DNA of 14,327 bases from a virus (Duplodnaviria; Heunggongvirae; Uroviricota; Caudoviricetes), in IMG/VR virus record IMGVR_UViG_2690316148_000011. One strand, written 5' to 3'. Every line of letters starts with the position of its first letter. Within the stretch, counting starts at the first letter, position 1. Both the position numbers and the translations under genes were made by a program. The notes under the pieces are model-generated. The model made no database searches, was not told the origin of the DNA, and saw only the letters and a list, made by a program, of their open reading frames with translations. Positions 33 through 9,267 of this stretch are shown in pieces.

Positions 33-1400
33 AGTATCAGTTGCGCTCTGATTTGTTCCTTCATCTTCAAACACGCCCTTTGTAGTCAGGTATTCAGTAA
101 TGTATTTGTTCAGTGCCACAGGGTCTTTGTGAATGTCGATCGGACGTTCACGGACAAGGCCAAAAATAGTCTGGCGGTCGTAGCGAAGGGCATCAGGCTG
201 TTTGCGCATTGATGCCGAGATACGCTTCCAGTCTTCGCGGTCGTTGTCGATAACTTCATTTTTTGCCCAGCGATGGATGCTGCCGTCAATGTTTCCGGCA
301 TCCACATCACCAGGCCAGAGAGCGTAGGCCAGTTCGTCATCCAGTGTTTTCCATGTCTGCTTGTATTCGCGATGAATGGCAGCAATGGCCGGGCTGATTT
401 TTCCTGTTGAATTTTCAGTGTGCTGTTGATTGGCTCTGGCACGGGCGAGATCAACAACAGACGTGTATTTTCCGGTTTCCTTGCGTTCACCTTCGCGACA
501 TTTTTTCCAGATGCGCATCTCTGCCTGAATTTCTGGCCATTTTGCACCAGGCTTACATTTATGCTTAATCCACCCGATGGCATGCAGTTTAATCTCCGGA
601 CACATGGCGTTAACTTCTGGCATTTTCATCAACGCTTCAACGATATGTCCGTCGAATGTTGCCATGTCTTCCTGCAACAGTTCCTGCGCGCTAATCACCA
701 TATCAACGGTGATGTTTTCACATGTGTCGAACTTAACCATGACAGCGTTCTGTACTTCAGGGGCCAGCTTGTCAAAAGTGACGTTCATCGGTTCGGATTC
801 AGTCTCAACCGGGACAAAGGAAGCAGACTCCTCATCCCAGCGGTTTTCCTGCATATATTCAGCATCCCAGGAATCGAGGGCAGGGCGGGGTATACCAGGT
901 TTATCCTCGCAGACAATAAATTTATAAGCGCAGTCCTGAGCAGCCGGATAATGTTCCAGGAATTGCCAGTGAAATTTTGCGCGGGCGCGGNNNNNNNNNN
1001 NNNNNNNNNNNNNNNNNNNNNNNNNNNNNNNNNNNNNNNNNNNNNNNNNNNNNNNNNNNNNNNNNNNNNNNNNNNNNNNNNNNNNNNNNNNNNNNNNNNN
1101 NNNNNNNNNNNNNNNNNNNNNNNNNNNNNNNNNNNNNNNNNNNNNNNNNNNNNNNNNNNNNNNNNNNNNNNNNNNNNNNNNNNNNNNNNNNNNNNNNNNN
1201 NNNNNNNNNNNNNNNNNNNNNNNNNNNNNNNNNNNNNNNNNNNNNNNNNNNNNNNNNNNNNNNNNNCAGTTACCGGGAATTTTCTGTTCAGCTGCAGCAG
1301 CCACGCATTCTTTCATGGAGTTGTATACTCCGGTAACCAGTTCAGCTGGTTCGCCCGTATTAAGAATAACGGTCAGAACGAGTGCAAATGCTGTATTCAT
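30..1400 (-). CDS. Hypothetical phage protein; continuity across the N run is unverified, so this may be one gene or two
   Basis: Minus-strand ORF with protein-like composition, whereas the antisense ORF 420-1616 is F/L/S/C/H-rich. Start ATG 1398-1400 overlaps the stop of the upstream 62-aa ORF (ATGA). N-terminus is hydrophobic (MNTAFALVLTVILNTG). Stop codon TGA at 30-32 is supplied by the IS terminus. No family recognised. Confidence 0.5.
   Translation of the reverse strand: MNTAFALVLTVILNTGEPAELVTGVYNSMKECVAAAAEQKIPGNXXXXXXXXXXXXXXXXXXXXXXXXXXXXXXXXXXXXXXXXXXXXXXXXXXXXXXXXXXXXXXXXXXXXXXXXXXXXXXXXXXXXXXXXXXXXXRARAKFHWQFLEHYPAAQDCAYKFIVCEDKPGIPRPALDSWDAEYMQENRWDEESASFVPVETESEPMNVTFDKLAPEVQNAVMVKFDTCENITVDMVISAQELLQEDMATFDGHIVEALMKMPEVNAMCPEIKLHAIGWIKHKCKPGAKWPEIQAEMRIWKKCREGERKETGKYTSVVDLARARANQQHTENSTGKISPAIAAIHREYKQTWKTLDDELAYALWPGDVDAGNIDGSIHRWAKNEVIDNDREDWKRISASMRKQPDALRYDRQTIFGLVRERPIDIHKDPVALNKYITEYLTTKGVFEDEGTNQSATDT
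991..1266. other. Run of 276 N (assembly gap or masked sequence)
   Basis: Literal n characters. Length is a multiple of 3, so the apparent reading-frame continuity across it is not informative. Confidence 1.
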
Positions 1401-1585
1401 CGCCAGCATCCTTTTTGCATCAGACGCAAACGAGCCAGCATTGAAACAATGCATATTTTATTTAATGACTCCCGTTCGTGTTTTCTCTTGTTAATGGCAT
1501 CTTCAGTAAATACCGTGTTACTGATAGTGACACCAATTTCAAAACAACCTTCAGTCGTATTAACGTTTGGTAATAACGTTTCCAT
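1397..1585 (-). CDS. Hypothetical small protein (62 aa), third cistron-linker of the Rha operon
   Basis: ATG at 1583-1585 preceded by GAGGA with about 8 nt spacing, 10 nt after the Rha stop. Its stop overlaps the next start (ATGA). No recognisable domain. Confidence 0.4.
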   Translation of the reverse strand: METLLPNVNTTEGCFEIGVTISNTVFTEDAINKRKHERESLNKICIVSMLARLRLMQKGCWR

Positions 1586-1595
1586 TATCGCGTCC

Positions 1596-2153
1596 TCAAC
1601 AATGAATTTTGAGTAATTGCTCTACAGTCATATTTTTAATTGCGCCCCGGTTAACAAGAGTCCATCCCTGTTCTTCCAGATAAAACCGGAAAGTCTCCAT
1701 GGTACAGACCCGTGCGCCATCAGGAACGGTTTCGGTGAATCTGATGTTGCCGCGTTCGTCGAAGTGAACAACCAGGGTGCGGCCATCGCCTGGAATTATT
1801 TTGTCAGTGGGTGGGGTGTTATTCTGGCGCAGTTCGGCCTCCATGCGATCGAACTCAGCAATGTAGGCTTCTTTAAATGCAGCGGCTTTTTTGCCAGTGA
1901 ATCCCATCACCAGGAAAACGAAGCCGTTTTTGGTGATTTGGTACATCGGGCGTTTTTCGCCTTTGGCGTCAGTGTAGGTGACGTCCTCAAAATTGAGGGC
2001 GTTAAATTCAGGTGAGCATTCAGTATTTGCGATGGCACGTAACACATTGTCGTGACGCTTGCCAAAGAACTCTGCGATCGCAATAGACGTAGTGACAGCG
2101 CGACCATTTTCGATGGTTACGTCAGGGTGAGAAAGGGCAGGGATAGTAGCCAT
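1596..2153 (-). CDS. Rha-family phage regulatory protein (antirepressor-like)
   Basis: N-terminal region MATIPALSHPDVTIENGRAVTTSIAIAEFFGKRHDNVLRAIANT matches the Rha N-terminal domain signature (TTS..IAE.FGK.H.NVLR). ATG at 2151-2153 preceded by GAGGA. The ORF-track start at 2450 is rejected (see noticed_but_rejected). Confidence 0.8.
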   Translation of the reverse strand: MATIPALSHPDVTIENGRAVTTSIAIAEFFGKRHDNVLRAIANTECSPEFNALNFEDVTYTDAKGEKRPMYQITKNGFVFLVMGFTGKKAAAFKEAYIAEFDRMEAELRQNNTPPTDKIIPGDGRTLVVHFDERGNIRFTETVPDGARVCTMETFRFYLEEQGWTLVNRGAIKNMTVEQLLKIHC

Positions 2154-2320
2154 GATGGCATCCTCGAGTGATAAGTTAATTAACTCACCACCGAGGTTTT
2201 CCACGACCATAAGGGTGGTGAGACGTACAGGGGTGGAAATACCGGTCATCACGGAACCCGGCCAGCCTTGCGGTTGCCCTGCACGCCCCACCATAATGCG
2301 AATGTGGCTGTGCTTAACGC

Positions 2321-2345
2321 ATAAAAAAACCGCCTGAGCGCGGTT
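2321..2345 (-). terminator. Rho-independent terminator (minus strand)
   Basis: Minus-strand AACCGC-GCUCAG-GCGGUU hairpin (6-bp stem) followed by a U7 run (plus-strand A-run 2323-2329). Confidence 0.5.
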
Positions 2346-2397
2346 ATGCGCCGTGAATGATTTCGGGTTTCCACGCCCGGCACCCGTTTTATGAGGT
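2323..2397 (-). ncRNA. Candidate ~75-nt small RNA or leader transcript upstream of the Rha antirepressor gene (c4/sar-like position); unverified
   Basis: Promoter (2405-2433) and intrinsic terminator (2321-2345) on the same strand about 75 nt apart. The hairpin stem is preserved in the paralogous copy although loop and body bases differ. A UCAC-UUCG-GUGA tetraloop hairpin lies just upstream. Confidence 0.35.
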
Positions 2398-2404
2398 GCA
2401 GGTG

Positions 2405-2433
2405 CACTATAATTCCACCCGTTCTGGTTTTCA
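2405..2433 (-). promoter_or_regulatory. Sigma70-like promoter on the minus strand (-35 TTGAAA, 17-bp spacer, -10 TATAGT)
   Basis: Plus-strand tttcaa at 2428-2433 and actata at 2405-2410, separated by 17 nt. Identical in the second copy (4125-4153). Confidence 0.4.
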
Positions 2434-2864
2434 ATAGCTACATTCAACATTTTCTCTCACCTTTCATCACCGAAGTGAATTTTGTTGATGCGGTGCCTGG
2501 TGCCTCCAGGTGACGTTAACCAGTTAACAATTACAGTTGGCTTTCCCACCCAAACCAATAAGGACTAACATGACTTTTAACTGTGCCGCGTGCGCATAGC
2601 CGCATTCACCGCATCACAAAATTCACTTTAAAAAGGGCGGACATCAGCCAGCAATTAAACCGATGCCGCCAACTGGTACTTCACACAGCAATGTCGTTAT
2701 TTACAACCGGAAGCGCACTCCCACCATTTAAATTTCACAGACAAGACCGACTCTTTATGGATACCGGAAATGCGCCTTCGTGTTGTGCCCGGTTTTATTT
2801 CACCACCTCCGGGCTTTGGTATGAGGTGTACTGGCAATAGCGGACACTACCATTTGTTCTTTTT

Positions 2865-3683
2865 TTAAGCAGCCATCTGATGATATTTTTCCCTGAAGGC
2901 TGCCGGGGAGATATTCCCCAGACGAGAGTGACAACGCTGACGATTGTAGAAAATCTCAATGTATTCCCGTATTACTGAGATGGCTTCATCCCGGTTATTA
3001 AAACGATAGTGGCTCAGGCTCTCATTTTTCAGCGTTCCCCAGAAGCTTTCCATCGGAGCGTTGTCGTAACAGTTACCTTTACGCGACATTGATGTTTTCA
3101 GACCAGACTGCTCCTGTATGACCCGGTAATCGTATGCGCAGTACTGTGAACCTCGATCAGAGTGGTGGATTAGCCCGGCAGGTGGGCGCTGGCTCCTGAG
3201 CGCCATAAACAGGGCTTTACCTGTCAGCTCTTTTGTCATGCGCTCTCCCATGGCGTAGCCGACAATTTCGCACGTATAAACATCTTTGATGCCAGCGAGG
3301 TACAACCATCCCTCCTGTGTGGCAACATACGTCAGGTCCGCCACCCAGACCTGATTTGGTGCTGTAGGAGCGAACGTCTGGTTCAGCAGATTTGGCGCAA
3401 CTGGCAGATTGTGGTTCGAGTTCGTAGTCGCTCTGAACTTGCGTTTCTGCTTACAGCGTAGCCTTAGCTCCTTACGAAGACGTGCCAGTCGGTCACGACC
3501 AACGATGATGCCATTCTCTGCCAGCTCCGTCTGGAGCCGCCGGGTTCCATATGTTTCGCGAGTGCGGATATGTGCCACCTTAATCTCCAGTTTTAGCCGC
3601 TCATCACTTTGTTTTCTGTCTGAGGGTTCATGCTGTACCCAGTTGTAATAACCGCTCCTGGATACACCAAATACCTGACACAT
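2865..3683 (-). CDS. IS3-family transposase OrfB (DDE/integrase core), probably expressed as an OrfAB fusion by -1 frameshifting
   Basis: Motifs typical of the IS3 transposase catalytic domain (LIHHSDRGSQYCAYDY, SRKGNCYDNAPMESFW). I translated the orfB frame upstream of the first ATG by hand: it stays open to the A7G slippery run (about 3764-3772) inside orfA and is the -1 frame relative to orfA. Confidence 0.85.
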   Translation of the reverse strand: MCQVFGVSRSGYYNWVQHEPSDRKQSDERLKLEIKVAHIRTRETYGTRRLQTELAENGIIVGRDRLARLRKELRLRCKQKRKFRATTNSNHNLPVAPNLLNQTFAPTAPNQVWVADLTYVATQEGWLYLAGIKDVYTCEIVGYAMGERMTKELTGKALFMALRSQRPPAGLIHHSDRGSQYCAYDYRVIQEQSGLKTSMSRKGNCYDNAPMESFWGTLKNESLSHYRFNNRDEAISVIREYIEIFYNRQRCHSRLGNISPAAFREKYHQMAA

Positions 3684-3718
3684 CGCTTCAATGGGAAATT
3701 GTTGTCGCCATTGTTCGA

Positions 3719-3959
3719 TTAACGCGTATTTTTCAGCGACTCCTGTGCAAAATACGCTGTTGCTTTTTTTAATATATCTCGCTCAAGGCGAGCTTCATTT
3801 AACGCCTTACGCAGTTGCAGAATTTCAGATTCCAGTTCAGCCACCGTGCGGGAACCAGGAGTACCGAGCCCTTTTCTGGCGGCGGTAACCCATTGTCCTA
3901 AAGTGCCTTCAGGAAGAGATAATCGGGAAGCGCCTTCACTGATCGAAAGTTGATTTTCA
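3719..3959 (-). pseudogene. IS3-family OrfA, N-terminally truncated (HTH plus leucine-zipper region retained)
   Basis: Sequence ...LSISEGASRLSLPEGTLGQWV...ELESEILQLRKALNEARLERDILKKATAYF matches the C-terminal two-thirds of IS3-family OrfA. No start codon; the ORF runs into the n at 3960. Confidence 0.7.
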
Positions 3960-3960
3960 N

Positions 3961-4403
3961 ACCGGTCATCACGGAACCCGGCCAGCCTTGCGGTTGCCCT
4001 GCACATCCCACCATAATTTGAATGGAGCTGTGCATTACGCATAAAAAAACCGCTTCAGCGCGGCTATGCGCTCGAGTAACGTTCGGGTTTCCACGCCCGG
4101 CACCCGTTTTATAAGGTGCAGGTGCACTATAATTCCACCCGTTCTGGTTTTCAATAGCTACATTCAACATTTTCTCTCACCTTTCATCACCGAAGTGAAT
4201 TTTGTTGATGCGGTGCCTGGTGCCTCCAGGTGACGTTAACCAGTTAACAATTAACGCCGGATACAGGGAAACCCATAACCACCCGATACGGGGGAACTAA
4301 TCGCTTTTTAACTGTGCCGCGTGCGCTGAGCCGCATTCACCGCATCACAAAATTCACTTTAAAAAGGGCGGACATCAGCCAGCAATGAAACTGATGCCGC
4401 CAA
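3961..4403. repeat. Copy 2 of the ~430-bp duplicated module
   Basis: Aligns with 2241-2672 at a constant offset of 1720 for the first ~280 bp, then a divergent patch, then a second conserved block. Confidence 0.9.
4043..4117 (-). ncRNA. Second copy of the candidate small RNA; no downstream antirepressor gene because the truncated IS abuts it
   Basis: Same promoter hexamers (4125-4153) and a hairpin AGCCGC-GCUGAA-GCGGUU plus U-run at 4043-4065. Relative to copy 1 the changes fall in the loop and convert an A-U pair to G-U. Confidence 0.3.
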
Positions 4404-4601
4404 AGGTACCAATCAACATGGAGTGTTGTGGCGTGGTTGTCACTTAAGCGTATGGTCAACCTGACAACCCGGTGTCCTCAACGGGGAAGGAATAACTCCG
4501 CCATACTTACCGCCGCGTCATTTCGCGTTGTGTGCCTGCTTTTAACCACGTCAGGCGAGGTGGTATCCTTCTTATCCCGAATAACCAAGAAGGAAATCTA
4601 T

Positions 4602-4802
4602 ATGACTAAAGAAGAATTTGTCTCTTATATTTTTGATAAAACGGTTGAAATGTATGCCGCTACTTACGGGTCCTGTAATCCTCTGAATAAACCAGAGGGA
4701 AAAGATGATTTCGACAAAATTTACCGCTTCTTGGAGGACCGCTATATCAAAAGCTTAGAGGACGCAGGGATCAAATCCCCAGTGAAGTCACCATTGTCCT
4801 GA
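4602..4802 (+). CDS. Hypothetical small protein (66 aa)
   Basis: ATG at 4602 preceded by AAGGA with 7 nt spacing; AT-rich; its 3' end overlaps the convergent 125-aa ORF by about 30 nt. No recognisable domain. Confidence 0.45.
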   Translation: MTKEEFVSYIFDKTVEMYAATYGSCNPLNKPEGKDDFDKIYRFLEDRYIKSLEDAGIKSPVKSPLS

Positions 4803-5148
4803 GAACTTGCAGAACGTCATGATCATAACTTCCATCCAAACCGCGACGGCGAATTGCTTCTCGTATTACCGGAAGCAGTTCGCTGGAAATCTCGGTGCAT
4901 ATTTCACCTGATAATACGCTTGGCTCAAGTGAGAATATTGGTGAACTTACGGTCTTGGTCTCGACAGTTTCAGAGTCAGTGCCAACATTATAAAGCTCAA
5001 CGAAAGCGGTCTTGATTTTCCGGGCCAGATCTTTTGCTGGCTCGCTTGCAATATCTTTCCCGATTTCTCGCAGCACAGAATGCAATGTATGAGCTGCTGT
5101 TTTCTGTACATCAGACGGTAAATCTTTAAATTCCATCGTCAGCCTCAT
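4771..5148 (-). CDS. Hypothetical protein (125 aa), second gene of a leftward PL-position operon
   Basis: Start ATG overlaps the stop of the upstream small ORF (TGATG); AT-rich relative to flanking DNA. No recognisable domain. Confidence 0.55.
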   Translation of the reverse strand: MRLTMEFKDLPSDVQKTAAHTLHSVLREIGKDIASEPAKDLARKIKTAFVELYNVGTDSETVETKTVSSPIFSLEPSVLSGEICTEISSELLPVIREAIRRRGLDGSYDHDVLQVLRTMVTSLGI

Positions 5149-5300
5149 CAGTCAGTGTTTCTGGCTAACCAGCAACGCGCGCCAGATTCGGTTTTAAACG
5201 TTTTGCTTTTGGTATACGTCATGGCGGTAAACGTTCCATCCTGGTTAGGGAACACGCCGCACACCAGAGATTCGTTGTTGCCAAGATCGATAGTATCCAT
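5148..5300 (-). CDS. Hypothetical small protein (about 50 aa), first gene of the leftward PL-position operon
   Basis: ATG at 5298-5300 preceded by GGGGA with about 12 nt spacing. The ORF-track version begins further upstream at 5354. Confidence 0.4.
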   Translation of the reverse strand: MDTIDLGNNESLVCGVFPNQDGTFTAMTYTKSKTFKTESGARCWLARNTD

Positions 5301-5479
5301 GCTGACCTCATTTCCCCTTAACGCCGGGGTGGCGGAACAAAAAACCTGCTGCATAGTTAAAGATTGAACCCTGCCGTCATGTTCTTACGCCTCGGGCTGG
5401 CTACTTAACCCCTGACCACTGTCTGGTAACTCGAAGTATTGCCCTGCATTCTGTGGGGCGGGGTGGGTTGACGCCTGAA

Positions 5480-5522
5480 AAAATAGCATCATTATTTTTT
5501 GATGTAAATAGCATCGCTATTG
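5480..5522 (-). promoter_or_regulatory. OL-like region: two 17-bp operator-like palindromes (5481-5497, 5506-5522) overlapping a leftward sigma70-like promoter
   Basis: AAATAGCATCATTATTT and AAATAGCATCGCTATTG, centres 25 bp apart; minus-strand -35 TTTACA (plus 5503-5508) and -10 TATTTT (plus 5480-5485) with 17-nt spacer. Confidence 0.5.
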
Positions 5523-5535
5523 TTTTTGTTGGGGC

Positions 5536-5560
5536 AAGAAAAAACCACCCTAAGGTGGTT
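5536..5560 (-). terminator. Rho-independent terminator downstream of the ParE-like gene (minus strand)
   Basis: Minus-strand AACCACC-UUAG-GGUGGUU hairpin (7-bp stem) followed by UUUUUUCUU, 17 nt after the toxin stop codon. Confidence 0.55.
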
Positions 5561-5576: not shown

Positions 5577-5867
5577 TTAACTGTTTTTGCCTGGATACTG
5601 TCTTCGAGAATGCACAATATTTACTACTTCTATGCTTGATGCTGTTACTCGGTAAAGGATGATGTAGTTAGGATGAGTTACAATTTCACGAAGACCAAGA
5701 ACTCGCTCGCTTGGAGGATACAGGTAAGGATGCTCTGTGAGCGGCAAAACGGATGTTTCAATTCGAATTTTCATTCTGCGTGCTGCCGCGGGATTTTCTT
5801 TAGCTATGTAGGCTACGATCTGGCGCAAATCATCACGAGCAGATGGTAGCCATAAAACGGGTAACAT
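5577..5867 (-). CDS. ParE/RelE-family type II toxin (ParE2-like)
   Basis: 96-aa protein with ParE/RelE-like N-terminus (MLPVLWLPSARDDLRQIVAYI) and C-terminus (IILYRVTASSIEVVNIVHSRRQYP); start overlaps the antitoxin stop (TAATG). Confidence 0.85.
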   Translation of the reverse strand: MLPVLWLPSARDDLRQIVAYIAKENPAAARRMKIRIETSVLPLTEHPYLYPPSERVLGLREIVTHPNYIILYRVTASSIEVVNIVHSRRQYPGKNS

Positions 5868-6061
5868 TATTCACCTCTGTGAGTTGCAGCAGCAATTTGG
5901 GCAATAATTTGTTCCATTTCCGCCATTACCTCATCATGCGGAATCGCCGGGCGGGGATCCGCGAGGCTTGCTGCTACTTTGGCCCGCAGCCATTCGTTGT
6001 AACTATTTTCTTGCTCAACTGTCTCAAATTCTGAAACCATTGGGGAAAGGACTGTACTCAT
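5867..6061 (-). CDS. Small antitoxin, PaaA2-like
   Basis: 64-aa acidic protein immediately upstream of, and translationally coupled to, the ParE-like gene; AGGAG RBS 9 nt upstream. N-terminal SPMVSEFETVEQENSYNEWLRAKVAASLADPRPAIPHDEV resembles the PaaA2 antitoxin of E. coli O157 as I recall it. Confidence 0.75.
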   Translation of the reverse strand: MSTVLSPMVSEFETVEQENSYNEWLRAKVAASLADPRPAIPHDEVMAEMEQIIAQIAAATHRGE

Positions 6062-7449: not shown

Positions 7450-8514
7450 ATGGCTAACGCCTGGCTCAGATTATGGCATGACATGCCAAATGACCCTAAG
7501 TGGCGAACAATTGCCAGGGTGTCAGGGCAGCCAATTGCAACAGTGATGGCAGTGTATATCCACCTCCTGGTGAGCGCGTCACGAAATGTCACGCGAGGTC
7601 ACATTGATGTCACGACAGAAGATTTGGCAAGTGCGCTCGACGTGACAGAAGAGGTAATTGATTCAATTTTGCAGACGATGCAGGGGCGGGTACTTGATGG
7701 TGATTTAATCACTGGATGGGAAAAACGCCAGGTGCTTAAAGAGGACAACGGCAATATTTCGCAAACCGCAAAATCTCCTGCAGAGCGCAAGAGGGCGCAG
7801 CGAGAGAGGGAAAGAAAGCGGGAACAAAATGGCGATTGTCACGGCGCGTCACGAAATGTCACGCACATGTCACGACGAGTCACGACAGATACAGATAAAG
7901 ATACAGATAAAGAAGATCAAAACACTATGGTCCATGGCGTAAAAAACGCCACGAACCAGGCAGGGGATGTTCAGACCGTCAATCCTGGTCAGCCAGCAGG
8001 CTCGACACCGGAAGCCGATTCAGCGTATGCGCTGAAAGCCGATTCGGGCGCTGTGCAGCAGGTGATGACCGCAAGGCCGGAGCAATCACTCCAACTGCAG
8101 CAGCCTGAAGCCGATTCCGCCATTCAGCGGGAAGCCGATCGGGTAGCCCCGGAAAACACCGGGCAGCCTGTGGGACGAGTGGATTATCCGGATGTGTTCG
8201 AACAGGTCTGGCGGGAATACCCGTTGCGTGCCGGGGCAAACCCGAAGAAATCCGCATTCAGTGCCTGGAAGGCCAGATTGCGCGAGGGGGTGCCACCAGA
8301 GACCATGCTGGATGGTGTGAGGCGTTACGCGAGATACCTGGCGGCGACCGGGAAAGCGGGAACGGAATTTGTTCAGCGAGCGACGACGTTTTTTGGGCCG
8401 GACCGGAATTTTGAAAACCCCTGGTTGCTCCCGGTAAGCGGCACGAACAACCAGCGTTGTGTGAATCATATTTCTGAACCGGATACCGAAATTCCGCCGG
8501 GATTCAGGGGGTGA
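7450..8514 (+). CDS. Phage replication initiation protein (lambda O-like / YdaU-like replisome organiser)
   Basis: ATG at 7450 with AGAGGTGAG RBS; contains two iteron clusters within its coding sequence (as ori-lambda lies within O); C-terminal region YPDVFEQVWREYPLRAGANPKKSAFSAWKARL resembles phage replication-protein C-terminal domains; followed immediately by the DnaC-like gene. Confidence 0.6.
   Translation: MANAWLRLWHDMPNDPKWRTIARVSGQPIATVMAVYIHLLVSASRNVTRGHIDVTTEDLASALDVTEEVIDSILQTMQGRVLDGDLITGWEKRQVLKEDNGNISQTAKSPAERKRAQRERERKREQNGDCHGASRNVTHMSRRVTTDTDKDTDKEDQNTMVHGVKNATNQAGDVQTVNPGQPAGSTPEADSAYALKADSGAVQQVMTARPEQSLQLQQPEADSAIQREADRVAPENTGQPVGRVDYPDVFEQVWREYPLRAGANPKKSAFSAWKARLREGVPPETMLDGVRRYARYLAATGKAGTEFVQRATTFFGPDRNFENPWLLPVSGTNNQRCVNHISEPDTEIPPGFRG
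7578..7614. repeat. Iteron cluster A: four GTCAC(G/A) repeats phased at 10-11 bp
   Basis: GTCACG at 7578, 7588, 7609 and GTCACA at 7598. Confidence 0.6.
7838..7912. repeat. Iteron cluster B: five GTCACG repeats phased at 10-11 bp, followed by a tandem ATACAGATAAAG x2; candidate replication origin
   Basis: GTCACG at 7838, 7848, 7858, 7869, 7879. The 19-mer gcgtcacgaaatgtcacgc is shared exactly with cluster A. Tandem 12-mer at 7889-7912. Confidence 0.6.
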
Positions 8515-8520
8515 TGTGGC

Positions 8521-9267
8521 ATGAAAAACATTGCGGCAGCCGGGGTTCTTGAACGTATTCACAGACTTGCACCACAGGGGGCGGTTCCACCGTACCGGAC
8601 GGTGGAGGAGTGGCGGGAATGGCAACTTGCTGAAGGACGAAAACGCAGCGAGGAGATTAACCGCCAGAATCGCCAGTTGCGGGTGGAAAAAATCCTGAAT
8701 CGTTCGGGCATCCAGCCTCTGCACAGCAAATGCTCGTTTGCGAATTATCAGGTGCAGAACGACGGGCAAAAATACGCGCTGAGCCAGGCCAAATCCATAG
8801 CTGACGAACTGATGACCGGGTGCACGAATTTTGTGTTCAGCGGTAAAACCGGCACCGGGAAAAATCACCTTGCAGCGGCGATGGGTAACTGGCTGATGGC
8901 GAAGGGGCGCAGCGTGATTATCGTCACCGTGTCTGATGTCATGAGCGTGTTGCATGACAGCTACGACAACGGCAAATCCGGTGAAAAATTTTTACAGGAG
9001 CTTTGCGGGGTTGATTTGCTGGTCCTGGATGAAATAGGCATTCAGCGGGAGACGAAAAACGAGCAGGTGGTATTGCACCAGATAATTGATCGCCGGACAG
9101 CATCACTGTGCAGTGTCGGGATGTTAACAAACCTGAATCATGCCGCAATGAGCACGCTTCTTGGTGAGAGGATTATGGACCGCATGACCATGAACGGTTG
9201 TCGGTGGGTGACGTTTAACTGGGATAGCTGGCGTTCAAATGTCAGCTTTCCGGGAGTTGTGAAGTAA
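8521..9267 (+). CDS. DnaC-like replicative helicase loader (IstB-like AAA+ ATPase; YdaV-like)
   Basis: Walker A GKTGTGKNHLAAAM and Walker B LLVLDEIG; 248 aa; positioned directly after the O-like gene. Confidence 0.85.
   Translation: MKNIAAAGVLERIHRLAPQGAVPPYRTVEEWREWQLAEGRKRSEEINRQNRQLRVEKILNRSGIQPLHSKCSFANYQVQNDGQKYALSQAKSIADELMTGCTNFVFSGKTGTGKNHLAAAMGNWLMAKGRSVIIVTVSDVMSVLHDSYDNGKSGEKFLQELCGVDLLVLDEIGIQRETKNEQVVLHQIIDRRTASLCSVGMLTNLNHAAMSTLLGERIMDRMTMNGCRWVTFNWDSWRSNVSFPGVVK

Follow-up and report, generated by a model that had tools for sequence, protein, structure and literature searches.

The minus strand of a 14,327-bp stretch of prophage DNA, hereafter the window, very probably carries an RNA immunity cassette of the P4/P1 type ahead of its Rha gene. 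A DicF-like RNA lies on one side of the module and dicB on the other, and the surrounding operon is the early-left one of a Rac/Qin-like lambdoid prophage. Its RNA gene is real but already known from phages P4, P1 and Gifsy-1, and the finding opens no new kind of system. As the cassette precedes rha and the toxic division inhibitor gene dicB, its state would determine whether the constitutive internal promoter reaches both genes. The window is the entire contig CXDF01000117.1 of draft assembly GCA_001253095.1, and contains the following elements:

1397-1585, minus strand: dicB, 62 aa, next gene of the rha transcription unit (Pfam DicB, E = 1.7e-36)
1596-2153, minus strand: rha, short form, 185 aa, with its ATG at 2153-2151 (Pfam Phage_pRha, E = 2e-32)
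1596-2450, minus strand: extended 284-aa ORF ("Ash" plus Rha; eta-like), from Pfam Phage_ASH, PGAP and openness of the frame
2154-2210, minus strand: rha leader with the C4 target sites, read from the sequence and from three-way covariation of b1, b′ and b2
2211-2298, minus strand: C4-type antisense RNA, copy 1 (Rfam RF01695, 76.3 bits, threshold 45)
2323-2399, minus strand: IsrK copy 1, 77 nt (Rfam RF01394, 67.7 bits, threshold 50, model positions 1-77 of 77)
2406-2434, minus strand: promoter PisrK, copy 1 (−35 TTGAAA at 2434-2429, 17-nt spacer, −10 TATAGT at 2411-2406)
2635-2685, minus strand: DicF-like RNA, copy 1 (Rfam RF00039, 28.6 bits, below the threshold of 48)
2823-3959, minus strand: IS600 (IS3 family), 1,137 bp, from PGAP names under BLAST hits and terminal-repeat comparison
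3961-4018, minus strand: C4 copy 2, first 58 nt (Rfam 26.7 bits, below the threshold of 45)
4043-4119, minus strand: IsrK copy 2 (Rfam RF01394, 61.2 bits, threshold 50, model positions 1-77 of 77)
4126-4154, minus strand: PisrK copy 2, identical to copy 1
4366-4414, minus strand: DicF-like RNA, copy 2 (Rfam RF00039, 38.8 bits, below the threshold of 48, E = 2.7e-6)

Promoter, IsrK and C4 RNA

A preliminary description of this DNA had proposed that each of two repeated segments encodes a small RNA running from a promoter to a terminator. Both signals were recovered. The promoter TTGAAA-17-TATAGT, with 10 of the 12 consensus positions, is present on the minus strand of both copies, and a 6-bp GC-rich hairpin followed by a T-run is found at 2345-2323 and 4065-4043, including the reported change from A-U to G-U in the stem (AACCGCG / AGCCGCG). 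Promoter and intrinsic terminator delimit a predicted transcript of ~77 nt, and the sequence of both copies supports a discrete small RNA of this kind. This candidate RNA is IsrK, a catalogued prophage small RNA, matched over the whole length of its Rfam model. Another Rfam family, c4-a1b1 (RF03163), belongs to the C4 clan. Its model overlaps the isrK matches with 25.7 and 24.8 bits, below the threshold of 46.7, where Gifsy-1 passes at 48.1 bits and P4 falls just under at 44.1; judged by these scores, the isrK model is the better fit to the two candidate RNAs.

PisrK copy 1 is situated within the 284-aa ORF. A promoter scan of the whole window did not rise above shuffled sequences (6 sites versus 4.8 expected), so that the case for promoter function is one of conservation. 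The pattern TTGnnn-17-TAnnnT is kept at a constant distance from the RNA start in homologues whose surroundings have diverged, and it is also found at the matching position in P4 and Gifsy-1, the counterparts of PisrK being PLE and the isrK promoter, respectively.

IsrK copy 1 is made of hairpin 1, hairpin 2, a single-stranded linker and the intrinsic terminator. Conservation of the hairpin stem had been taken as the trace of selection on RNA structure. Five compensatory pairs were counted among homologues, a figure reached by none of 500 shuffles, but the terminator stem was only 79% paired in a MAFFT alignment, and hairpin 2, being invariant, is uninformative on pairing. The signal is weaker than for C4.

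C4 copy 1 lies directly downstream of IsrK copy 1, ahead of rha. The suggestion that the C4 family of Rfam would be found here thus proved right for the adjacent element, at 2298-2211, and wrong for the candidate RNA itself, which is not C4. The C4 RNA folds into a 17-bp closing stem and two hairpins, the first of which is interrupted by an A·C mismatch in each copy. Over 20 homologues, 99.3% of cells were paired and 11 of the 27 pairs had compensatory changes, which was matched in 0 of 500 shuffles; when the partners were slid along the sequence, only 33-46% were paired. Family membership, structure, covariation and the complementarity of the sites presented below were all established in this analysis. 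The element at 2211-2298 is equivalent to P4 CI and to Salmonella STnc1160/orf45, and an orf45-like AUG (2294-2292) is placed at its 5′ edge, in the rha frame. For P1 c4, P4 CI and Salmonella STnc1160, the stable C4 RNA is known to be processed out of a longer transcript.

Target sites and the proposed circuit

Three elements of the cassette share a set of short sites. IsrK copy 1 has a1, GUGGAAA (2374-2368), in the loop of hairpin 2, and b1, UCAUUCACGG (2360-2351), in the linker. C4 has b′, GUUCCGUGAUGA (2257-2246), in a loop and a′, AUUUCCAC (2240-2233), at a junction. The rha leader has a2, GUGGAAA (2204-2198), and b2, UCACUCGAGGA (2171-2161), the latter overlapping the Shine-Dalgarno sequence GAGGA (2165-2161). 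Across about 32 distinct homologous loci, b1, b′ and b2 change in concert, which leads us to read IsrK as a copy of the C4 target. The a sites, too, change jointly, as GUGGAAA / UUUCCAC or as UUGGAAC / GUUCCAA. Duplex energies of whole RNAs were uninformative even for true partners, because they ignore intramolecular structure, and duplexes restricted to the sites were used instead, for 32 distinct b1/b′/b2 combinations from IMG/VR loci. Between IsrK linker and C4 loop, cognate duplexes had a mean of −14.2 kcal/mol, versus −7.1 kcal/mol for non-cognate ones; between leader and C4 loop, the means were −17.6 and −9.2 kcal/mol.

For expression, processing, direction of regulation and read-through translation we draw on the homologous systems, by analogy with which the cassette may work as follows. 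The sigma-70 promoter within the long ORF would initiate at about 2399, most transcripts would end at the intrinsic terminator to give the 77-nt IsrK, and those reading through would contain the C4 RNA. C4 would present junction a′ and loop b′ in single-stranded form and, in a matched cassette, these would pair with a2 and b2; given the overlap of b2 with the downstream Shine-Dalgarno sequence, such pairing would stop translation of that gene. Free IsrK, with its sense copies a1 and b1, would compete both for C4 and for the stretch of the long transcript that holds C4, thereby turning translation on, as Gifsy-1 IsrK does. Finally, on transcripts from farther upstream, all 284 codons could be translated straight across the RNA genes, as for P4 eta, and expression would then be insensitive to the RNA repressor.

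An RNA circuit controlling a downstream antirepressor-type gene had been foreseen in the preliminary description, and the sites described above support it, with the candidate RNA as a probable part. The role given to that RNA was another one: it was to be itself the antisense repressor of rha, similar to c4 or sar, by pairing with the Rha ribosome-binding region. An antirepressor-type gene does follow, and a genuine C4 family member is nearby. We nevertheless consider this role very improbable. The a1 and b1 sites of IsrK have the same sense as a2 and b2 of the leader and are not complementary to them, and whole-RNA duplexes between IsrK and the leader, where the proposed complementarity should appear, were no better than shuffles (z = 0.32 and 0.00). 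All that IsrK copy 2 and the leader share as complement is the 6-bp palindrome CUCGAG, and a pairing through it was rejected as too short. Moreover, the published role of Gifsy-1 IsrK is activation, its supply in trans lifting anrP translation more than 100 fold (PMC4825925, Table 1). The parallel with P22 sar also had to be abandoned: sar is a cis-antisense RNA, transcribed on the other strand and covering the ant ribosome-binding site, whereas promoter, terminator and both RNA family matches are here all on the rha strand, with no opposite-strand transcription. The two systems, each with a small RNA limiting antirepressor synthesis, resemble each other in outcome only. IsrK looks like a copy of the C4 target, acting as decoy and activator, rather than like an antisense repressor of the Rha ribosome-binding site.

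It is also quite unlikely that the main function of IsrK is to act in trans, in an Hfq-dependent way, on host mRNAs, its variable linker serving as a seed, in which case a duplicate with another linker would widen the target range. Rfam describes the isrK family as Hfq-binding, and the linker is single-stranded and hypervariable, but its variation is fully explained by the matching changes of C4 loop and leader at the same locus. Hfq binding and trans activation of the downstream gene are known for IsrK of Gifsy-1 only (PMC4825925). An action on host targets would be compatible with a cassette function.

In the window itself, junction a′ and a2 are complementary over 7 bp (UUUCCAC/GUGGAAA). 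The match between b′ and b2, present in 30 of the 32 homologous combinations, is absent from the window: the duplex has −10.9 kcal/mol, inside the non-cognate range, versus −20.5 kcal/mol for the same leader with a T2-type loop. Copy 1 of IsrK fits C4, with 7 bp between a1 and a′ and −12.9 kcal/mol between b1 and b′, equal to matched T1 loci. Copy 2 has a b1 of a different specificity type, T2 (UUACUCGAG, 4079-4071), which has the same sequence and the same sense as the b2 site of rha. It keeps the a1/a′ contact, and its b1 gives −17.8 kcal/mol with a T2 loop and −11.4 kcal/mol, at the edge of the non-cognate range, with the T1 loop available here. Both copies appear to be specificity chimeras. 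The C4 ahead of rha has a T1 loop and rha a T2 b2 site, so that loop-to-Shine-Dalgarno pairing is predicted to be lost and the 7-bp a′/a2 contact alone to be left. The assignment to the C4 family stands; the copy in the window is, by its pairing energies, a putative mismatched recombinant, in which the repressing half of the circuit may be inactive. Since the scaffold is a draft, which C4 truly precedes this rha cannot be fully guaranteed. If the mismatch between repressor and target is real, it is a natural case of recombination within a 250-bp cassette altering or breaking RNA immunity. There is a slim chance of a broader meaning: the b1/b′/b2 triads may form an RNA "immunity barcode" of many specificities in lambdoid prophages, reassorted here, rha and dicB having escaped C4 and the T2 IsrK, left with no cognate C4, being a free decoy that would strip C4 from incoming or co-resident T2 prophages and trigger their antirepressor. 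This would amount to an anti-immunity weapon between prophages, acting at the RNA level.

Related cassettes and the 284-codon frame

The predicted product of rha is of the antirepressor type and belongs to the Bro network. The gene matches the Rha-like and anti-repressor families of PHROGs, shows codon periodicity, and occupies the slot of P4 kil and of Gifsy-1 anrP. The isrK-orf45(STnc1160)-anrP locus of Salmonella phage Gifsy-1 (Hershko-Shalev et al. 2016, PMC4825925) contains both Rfam families, with the order and spacing seen here. Gifsy-1 and the window have in common the internal promoter and an IsrK whose middle and linker are complementary to the C4/orf45 region. In both, the 5′ edge of C4 has an orf45-like AUG, and the Shine-Dalgarno sequence of a Bro-network gene is overlapped by a b2 site; by analogy, the IsrK terminator of the window may be leaky as it is in Gifsy-1. 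In Gifsy-1, the target on which IsrK acts in trans is its own read-through transcript, and the effect is to activate translation of orf45-anrP (PMC4825925). The two loci differ in the downstream protein (Rha in the window, an ORF6N protein in Gifsy-1), in the b′/b2 pair (mismatched and matched, respectively) and in their site. The Gifsy-1 locus is near antQ in the late region, and that of the window is in the early-left operon, from DicF-like RNA to dicB, with neither isrJ nor antQ present. In addition, orf45 of Gifsy-1 is a separate frame of 45 codons ending in AUGA, whereas the orf45-like frame of the window is fused in frame to rha and reaches upstream of the promoter. The Gifsy-1 model being one of translational coupling from a separate orf45, details may differ here.

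The immI locus of P1/P7 (a1 b1 - c4 - a2 b2 - icd - ant) has an RNA of the same family as the window C4 (RF01695) and the same logic, namely two antisense elements with target copies on both flanks, a target at the ribosome-binding site of a gene preceding or encoding the antirepressor, and a specificity set by few bases. In the literature used for comparison, P1/P7 c4 is described as pairing with the surroundings of the ribosome-binding site that precedes ant. The regulated frame is icd, coupled to ant, in P1/P7, and rha itself is the first frame in the window. No separately terminated small RNA is known from the a1/b1 segment of P1. The antisense elements, the targets and the few-base specificity of P1/P7 c4 were reportedly described by Citron and Schuster in 1990.

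For P4 (PLE-seqA-CI(seqB)-seqC), the Rfam isrK model matches the seqA region and the C4 model matches CI, again with the order and spacing of the window. Both have their promoter within a long ORF, matched by Pfam Phage_ASH, that crosses the RNAs and enters the first translated gene without a change of frame. Eta, nested with kil, has been experimentally described; a summary of it, of the logic of the upstream promoter and of the CI/seqA circuit is given in PMC10111431. P4 differs in being a satellite, in having kil (65 aa) and not rha as downstream gene, and in its described output, premature Rho-dependent termination.

The long frame of the window starts at an ATG at 2450, upstream of PisrK and preceded by GGTGAGAG, and its codons 1-99 are the DNA of the promoter, IsrK, C4 and the leader. 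Could the region be merely the N-terminal "Ash" domain of a 284-aa Rha, with incidental promoter-like and terminator-like sites and no functional RNA? PGAP does annotate the homologous ORF at 284 aa, Pfam Phage_ASH (PF10554) matches residues 14-109 with 61.4 bits (cut-off 26), and PHROGs families span the full ORF. The frame is also free of stops in 56 of 66 unique homologous loci, where in-frame insertions are multiples of 3, and its variable segments contain 0 stops in 1,486 codons versus 145 in the other two frames. However, codon periodicity is absent from the first 99 codons (entropy 0.385/0.412/0.444, 53 sequences), whereas the adjoining Rha codons show it (0.58/0.44/1.03). Differences between the two copies, reported earlier as numerous, indeed affect 11 of 70 residues, and the 22 base differences are spread as 7/7/8 over the codon positions. 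RNA pairing is kept through substitutions, and a protein does not account for three sites whose changes stay complementary. As for Phage_ASH, it matches the old conceptual "cI gene product" ORF of P4, whose CI is an RNA, and the real P4 derepression protein, epsilon, falls in another family; the Ash part finds no match among solved structures. On codon statistics and RNA covariation we rejected a purely protein reading of the Ash region, which is scarcely credible.

The opposite statement of the preliminary description, that the ORF is unlikely to be coding, is correct as regards the lack of constraint at the amino-acid level, but too strong for a frame that is stop-free in most loci. The 284-aa ORF is apparently not simply non-coding. 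Its layout, a frame opening upstream of the internal promoter and crossing the putative RNA genes into rha, is that of the P4 eta/kil nested genes, and the pattern matches them. Automatic annotation here gives a "Rha family" protein of 284 aa containing an "Ash domain", when the first 99 codons are really a promoter, two RNA genes and targets; the Pfam Ash model is largely a translated RNA cassette.

The second copy and the scaffold joint

The existence of two copies of ~430 bp was verified: in the alignment of 2241-2672 with 3961-4403, 398 positions are identical, 23 are mismatched and 33 columns are gaps, giving 94.5% identity over aligned bases and 87.7% with gaps counted. Copy 2 had been viewed as an orphan, cut from its downstream gene by a truncated IS. 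This view could not be confirmed, as it rests on a scaffold joint: a lone N at 3960 falls exactly on the IS600/copy-2 boundary, which indicates that the junction is not read-through sequence. The IS600 segment has one terminal inverted repeat (2823-2853), the other end being absent at the joint, and this repeat recurs, inverted, at positions 2-32 of the window.

The chances are about even that the copy 1-IS600-copy 2 tandem is a product of scaffolding and gap filling. The copies would then come from two distinct DicF-IsrK-C4 regions, which probably belong to different prophages; copy 2 would have a complete C4 and its own downstream gene, and IS600 would be full length. The draft contig contains a gap of 276 N besides the single N right at the boundary, and its first bases are an IS600 end. 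Copy 2 ends 43 nt past the last difference with copy 1, as expected for a repeat boundary, and the DNA upstream of the two DicF-like RNAs is unrelated between copies. The tandem layout was found in none of 5,426 complete E. coli genomes, none of which exceeded 97% identity over the copy-1 cassette either, and an exact search for the copy-1/IS600 junction in a representative genome collection gave no match. On the other hand, tandem IsrK-C4-Rha modules occur elsewhere, with three in series at one locus (L119), the scaffold is presumably backed by mate-pair or read-pair linkage, and IS-mediated truncation is frequent in IS600-rich genomes.

The low score of C4 copy 2 is due to its missing 3′ part, the sequence ending at the N at 3960. 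Its 5′ stem is T2-like, and its hairpin 1 and b′ loop are identical to those of copy 1. Identity between the copies is highly patchy along their length: it is 100% across 2400-2533, IsrK in its 3′ half, with one block of 10 nt exchanged, has only 28 of 41 positions identical, and a stretch rich in indels is found at 2534-2574. Similarity ends upstream at 2672/4403. The DicF-like RNAs, despite scores under the threshold, match the full-length model, have a terminator hairpin and are placed upstream of dicB as in Qin; the one of copy 1, with a terminator-like hairpin at 2667-2640, marks the upstream end of the repeated module.

Small RNAs of the repeated module

The module at 2241-2672 (copy 1) recurs as a direct repeat at 3961-4403 (copy 2), as claimed in the preliminary description; aligned, the two share 398 identical positions and differ by 23 mismatches and 33 gap columns. 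Identity between the copies is a mosaic: it is 100% at 2400-2533, which comprises the promoter and the start of a long ORF, 28/41 in the candidate RNA's 3′ half, which includes a replaced block of 10 nt, and 37/45 in the stretch that follows, and the copies are identical again over the final 43 nt before the copy-2 end. The promoter and terminator described earlier are found in each copy, as a minus-strand TTGAAA-17-TATAGT and, about 75 nt downstream, a GC hairpin with a T-run. An Rfam scan of the window at curated thresholds gave three matches:

2399-2323, minus strand: isrK (RF01394), copy 1, 67.7 bits (threshold 50)
4119-4043, minus strand: isrK (RF01394), copy 2, 61.2 bits (threshold 50)
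2298-2211, minus strand: C4 antisense RNA (RF01695), 76.3 bits (threshold 45)

The proposed small RNA is therefore real, and is IsrK in both copies. The suggestion that it might belong to the C4 family was half right: C4 is present above threshold, but the candidate itself is IsrK. The IsrK terminator is followed after 24 nt by C4, and from C4 it is 57 nt to the rha ATG (2153-2151). In copy 2, only the first 58 nt of C4 are present, followed by N. Hairpin 1 of C4 (GCAACC...GGCUG) is interrupted at 2272-2274 / 2264-2266, and equivalently in copy 2, by an A·C mismatch that is common to both copies and one IMG/VR locus (L065), all remaining homologues being paired there.

This system is already known in its RNA families, architecture and mechanism from Gifsy-1, P4 and P1/P7; all that is added here is a chimera of specificities and a point of annotation, both reported below. 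Phage P4 gave an isrK match over the seqA region (8692-8615), and its CI immunity RNA (8507-8420) was matched by the C4 model. Gifsy-1, the prophage in which IsrK has been characterised, has isrK at 34316-34240, and there a C4 match of 69 bits (34214-34131) covers orf45/STnc1160, directly before anrP. The Gifsy-1 downstream operon is driven from the isrK promoter by terminator read-through, and the long transcript is kept translationally silent by pairing between the middle part of IsrK and some 30 nt in the orf45 region. This silencing is lifted by short IsrK provided in trans, which activates anrP translation more than 100 fold (Hershko-Shalev et al., PMC4825925). The same authors described IsrK and P4 seqA as structural homologues, and proposed that STnc1160 may correspond to CI (PMC4825925). 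The window counterpart of the orf45 start, an AUG at 2294-2292 (minus strand), is in frame with rha without intervening stop, and initiation there would yield Rha with a 47-residue N-terminal extension, not a coupled upstream peptide.

Target sites and mixed specificities

IMG/VR loci were fetched by an IsrK core pattern, and the segment from IsrK to the start codon was taken from each. The C4 fold is strongly supported by covariation: over 20 distinct sequences, 99.3% of cells were paired and 11/27 pairs had changed on both sides, which was reached by 0/500 shuffles, slid controls giving 33-46% pairing. Support for IsrK was weaker (five compensatory pairs, mostly in hairpin 1). Three sites change jointly from locus to locus, namely b1 (the linker of IsrK), b′ (the 12-nt loop of C4) and b2, whose end lies in the Shine-Dalgarno of the gene downstream. 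Examples of such triads are UUACUCGAG / CUCGAGUGA / UCACUCGAGGA; UCACCAAAG / CUUUGGUGA / UCACCAAAGAGG; and UGCAUACGG / CCGUAUGCG / UGCAUACGGAGG. Duplex energies computed over the 32 distinct combinations clearly separate cognate pairs, taken from one locus, from non-cognate ones.

Table. Mean duplex energies (kcal/mol) over 32 distinct b1/b′/b2 combinations.
Duplex; cognate; non-cognate
Leader b2 : C4 loop; -17.6; -9.2
IsrK linker b1 : C4 loop; -14.2; -7.1

A second trio, consisting of the IsrK hairpin-2 loop (GUGGAAA), the C4 junction (UUUCCAC) and the leader (GUGGAAA), switches likewise between two types. This is the a1b1 / a′b′ / a2b2 logic of P1/P7 c4, and that of seqA/seqB/seqC in P4; the Rfam family c4-a1b1, made of upstream target copies of C4, overlaps the isrK matches. 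The c4-like circuit postulated before an antirepressor-type gene was thus borne out, with isrK, C4 and covarying sites ahead of rha, but the role assigned to the small RNA was wrong. IsrK carries the target sequence in sense orientation and mimics the ribosome-binding region of rha, and a search for complementarity between the two was negative (z about 0).

The two copies were then compared with matched reference cassettes of specificity types T1 (e.g. L025) and T2 (e.g. L080, L002). Copy 1 has a T2 backbone (identities to T2 of 117/120 upstream, 21/21 for b2 and Shine-Dalgarno, and 54/54 at the rha start), with an inserted T1 patch that begins at IsrK nt 37 and ends at C4 nt 178. Copy 2 stays T2 as far as C4 nt 122, and is identical to copy 1 from there. 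Both C4 loops of the contig are therefore T1, and the sole leader is T2. The duplex between the window's own C4 loop and leader reaches -10.9 kcal/mol, in the non-cognate range, when a T2 loop would give -20.5 kcal/mol with this leader. The copy-2 IsrK linker has the sequence of the rha b2 site. Judging from these sequences, C4 control of rha, and of transcription into dicB, would be weakened, with only the 7-bp a′/a2 contact left. Similar chimeras were found in 2/32 combinations (L067 and the second module of L119), and none of the complete E. coli genomes searched had more than 97% identity over the cassette.

L067 is a chimera of another kind: its IsrK linker is of one type, its C4 loop and leader are of another, and linker and loop form a duplex of -7.3 kcal/mol, where cognate pairs average -14.2. 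In the last cassette of L119, the leader differs in specificity type from the C4 loop.

The long frame and the Ash model

A frame of 284 codons (2450-1596, minus strand) starts upstream of the internal promoter and continues across IsrK, C4 and the leader into rha; homologous ORFs of this length are annotated by PGAP. It had been judged unlikely to be coding, which goes too far. Its first 99 codons have no codon periodicity (0.385/0.412/0.444, 53 ungapped homologues), contrary to the adjoining Rha codons (0.58/0.44/1.03), and base differences between the window copies fall 7/7/8 by codon position. We concluded that the sequence is shaped by the RNAs rather than by a protein. Nevertheless, the frame is stop-free in 56/66 unique loci, where insertions are multiples of three, and its hypervariable segments contain 0 stops in 1,486 codons versus 145 in the other two frames, counts which, coming from related sequences, are an indication and not a probability. 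In the IMG/VR contig L119, three Ash-Rha ORFs follow one another with ATGA overlaps, and each contains its own IsrK and C4; these tandem cassettes, one per ORF, occupy 3038-5537.

The open long frame fits the pattern of P4 eta. According to the summary in PMC10111431, eta contains a constitutive promoter and the CI/seqA sites, is nested with kil, is translated only from an upstream promoter, and prevents termination by being translated. Small RNA and ORF are therefore not alternatives, and translation of the 284 codons would not speak against the RNA, contrary to what had been supposed.

The Pfam model Phage_ASH (PF10554, "Ash protein family") matches residues 14-109, exactly the RNA cassette, and also the old conceptual "cI gene product" ORF of P4 over CI RNA. 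The cassette translation corresponds to 2154-2450 (minus strand), and the P4 match to 8171-8584 (minus strand; L123). No solved structure was found for the Ash part. Papers using PF10554 sometimes equate Ash with the P4 derepression protein epsilon, which belongs to a different family, PF25738. PF10554 searches for epsilon homologues would therefore find RNA immunity cassettes in their place.

Assembly and operon context

The window corresponds to contig CXDF01000117.1 of the draft assembly GCA_001253095.1 in its full length. It opens at an IS600 terminal repeat (1-35), has a 276-N gap at 991-1266, inside the exonuclease/YdfE-like region, and a single N at 3960, with 1,137 bp of IS600 immediately on one side of it and, immediately on the other, the position at which copy 2 becomes indistinguishable from copy 1. 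A scaffold joint thus underlies the "truncated IS", the 1.7-kb spacing and the status of copy 2 as an orphan, and the preliminary description went wrong in what it said of copy 2. That the copy-2 C4 is a hybrid is more secure, since only about 10 nt separate its T2-specific from its copy-1-specific bases. The two DicF-like RNAs have unrelated upstream sequences, and the copies may therefore stem from separate regions in two prophages or from different parts of prophage DNA.

The module belongs to the early-left operon of a Rac/Qin-like prophage, which runs in the order HTH repressor, PaaA2/ParE, DUF1391 (ydfA-like), a 125-aa ORF, DicF-like RNA, STnc100-like stretch, Ash-Rha with IsrK and C4, dicB, DUF1482 and exonuclease. 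Each copy opens with a diverged DicF-like RNA and terminator hairpin (2635-2685, 28.6 bits; 4366-4414, 38.8 bits; both minus strand, Rfam threshold 48). This position ahead of dicB is that of the Qin prophage, except that here the IsrK-C4-rha cassette intervenes. Sub-threshold STnc100 matches (2481-2623, 29.9 bits; 4201-4354, 31.6 bits; both minus strand, threshold 47) sit between the DicF-like RNA and the long-ORF start. The PaaA2/ParE type II toxin-antitoxin pair (5580-6061, minus strand) is flanked by the prophage repressor gene and the ydfA-like gene, and shares the strand of the operon.
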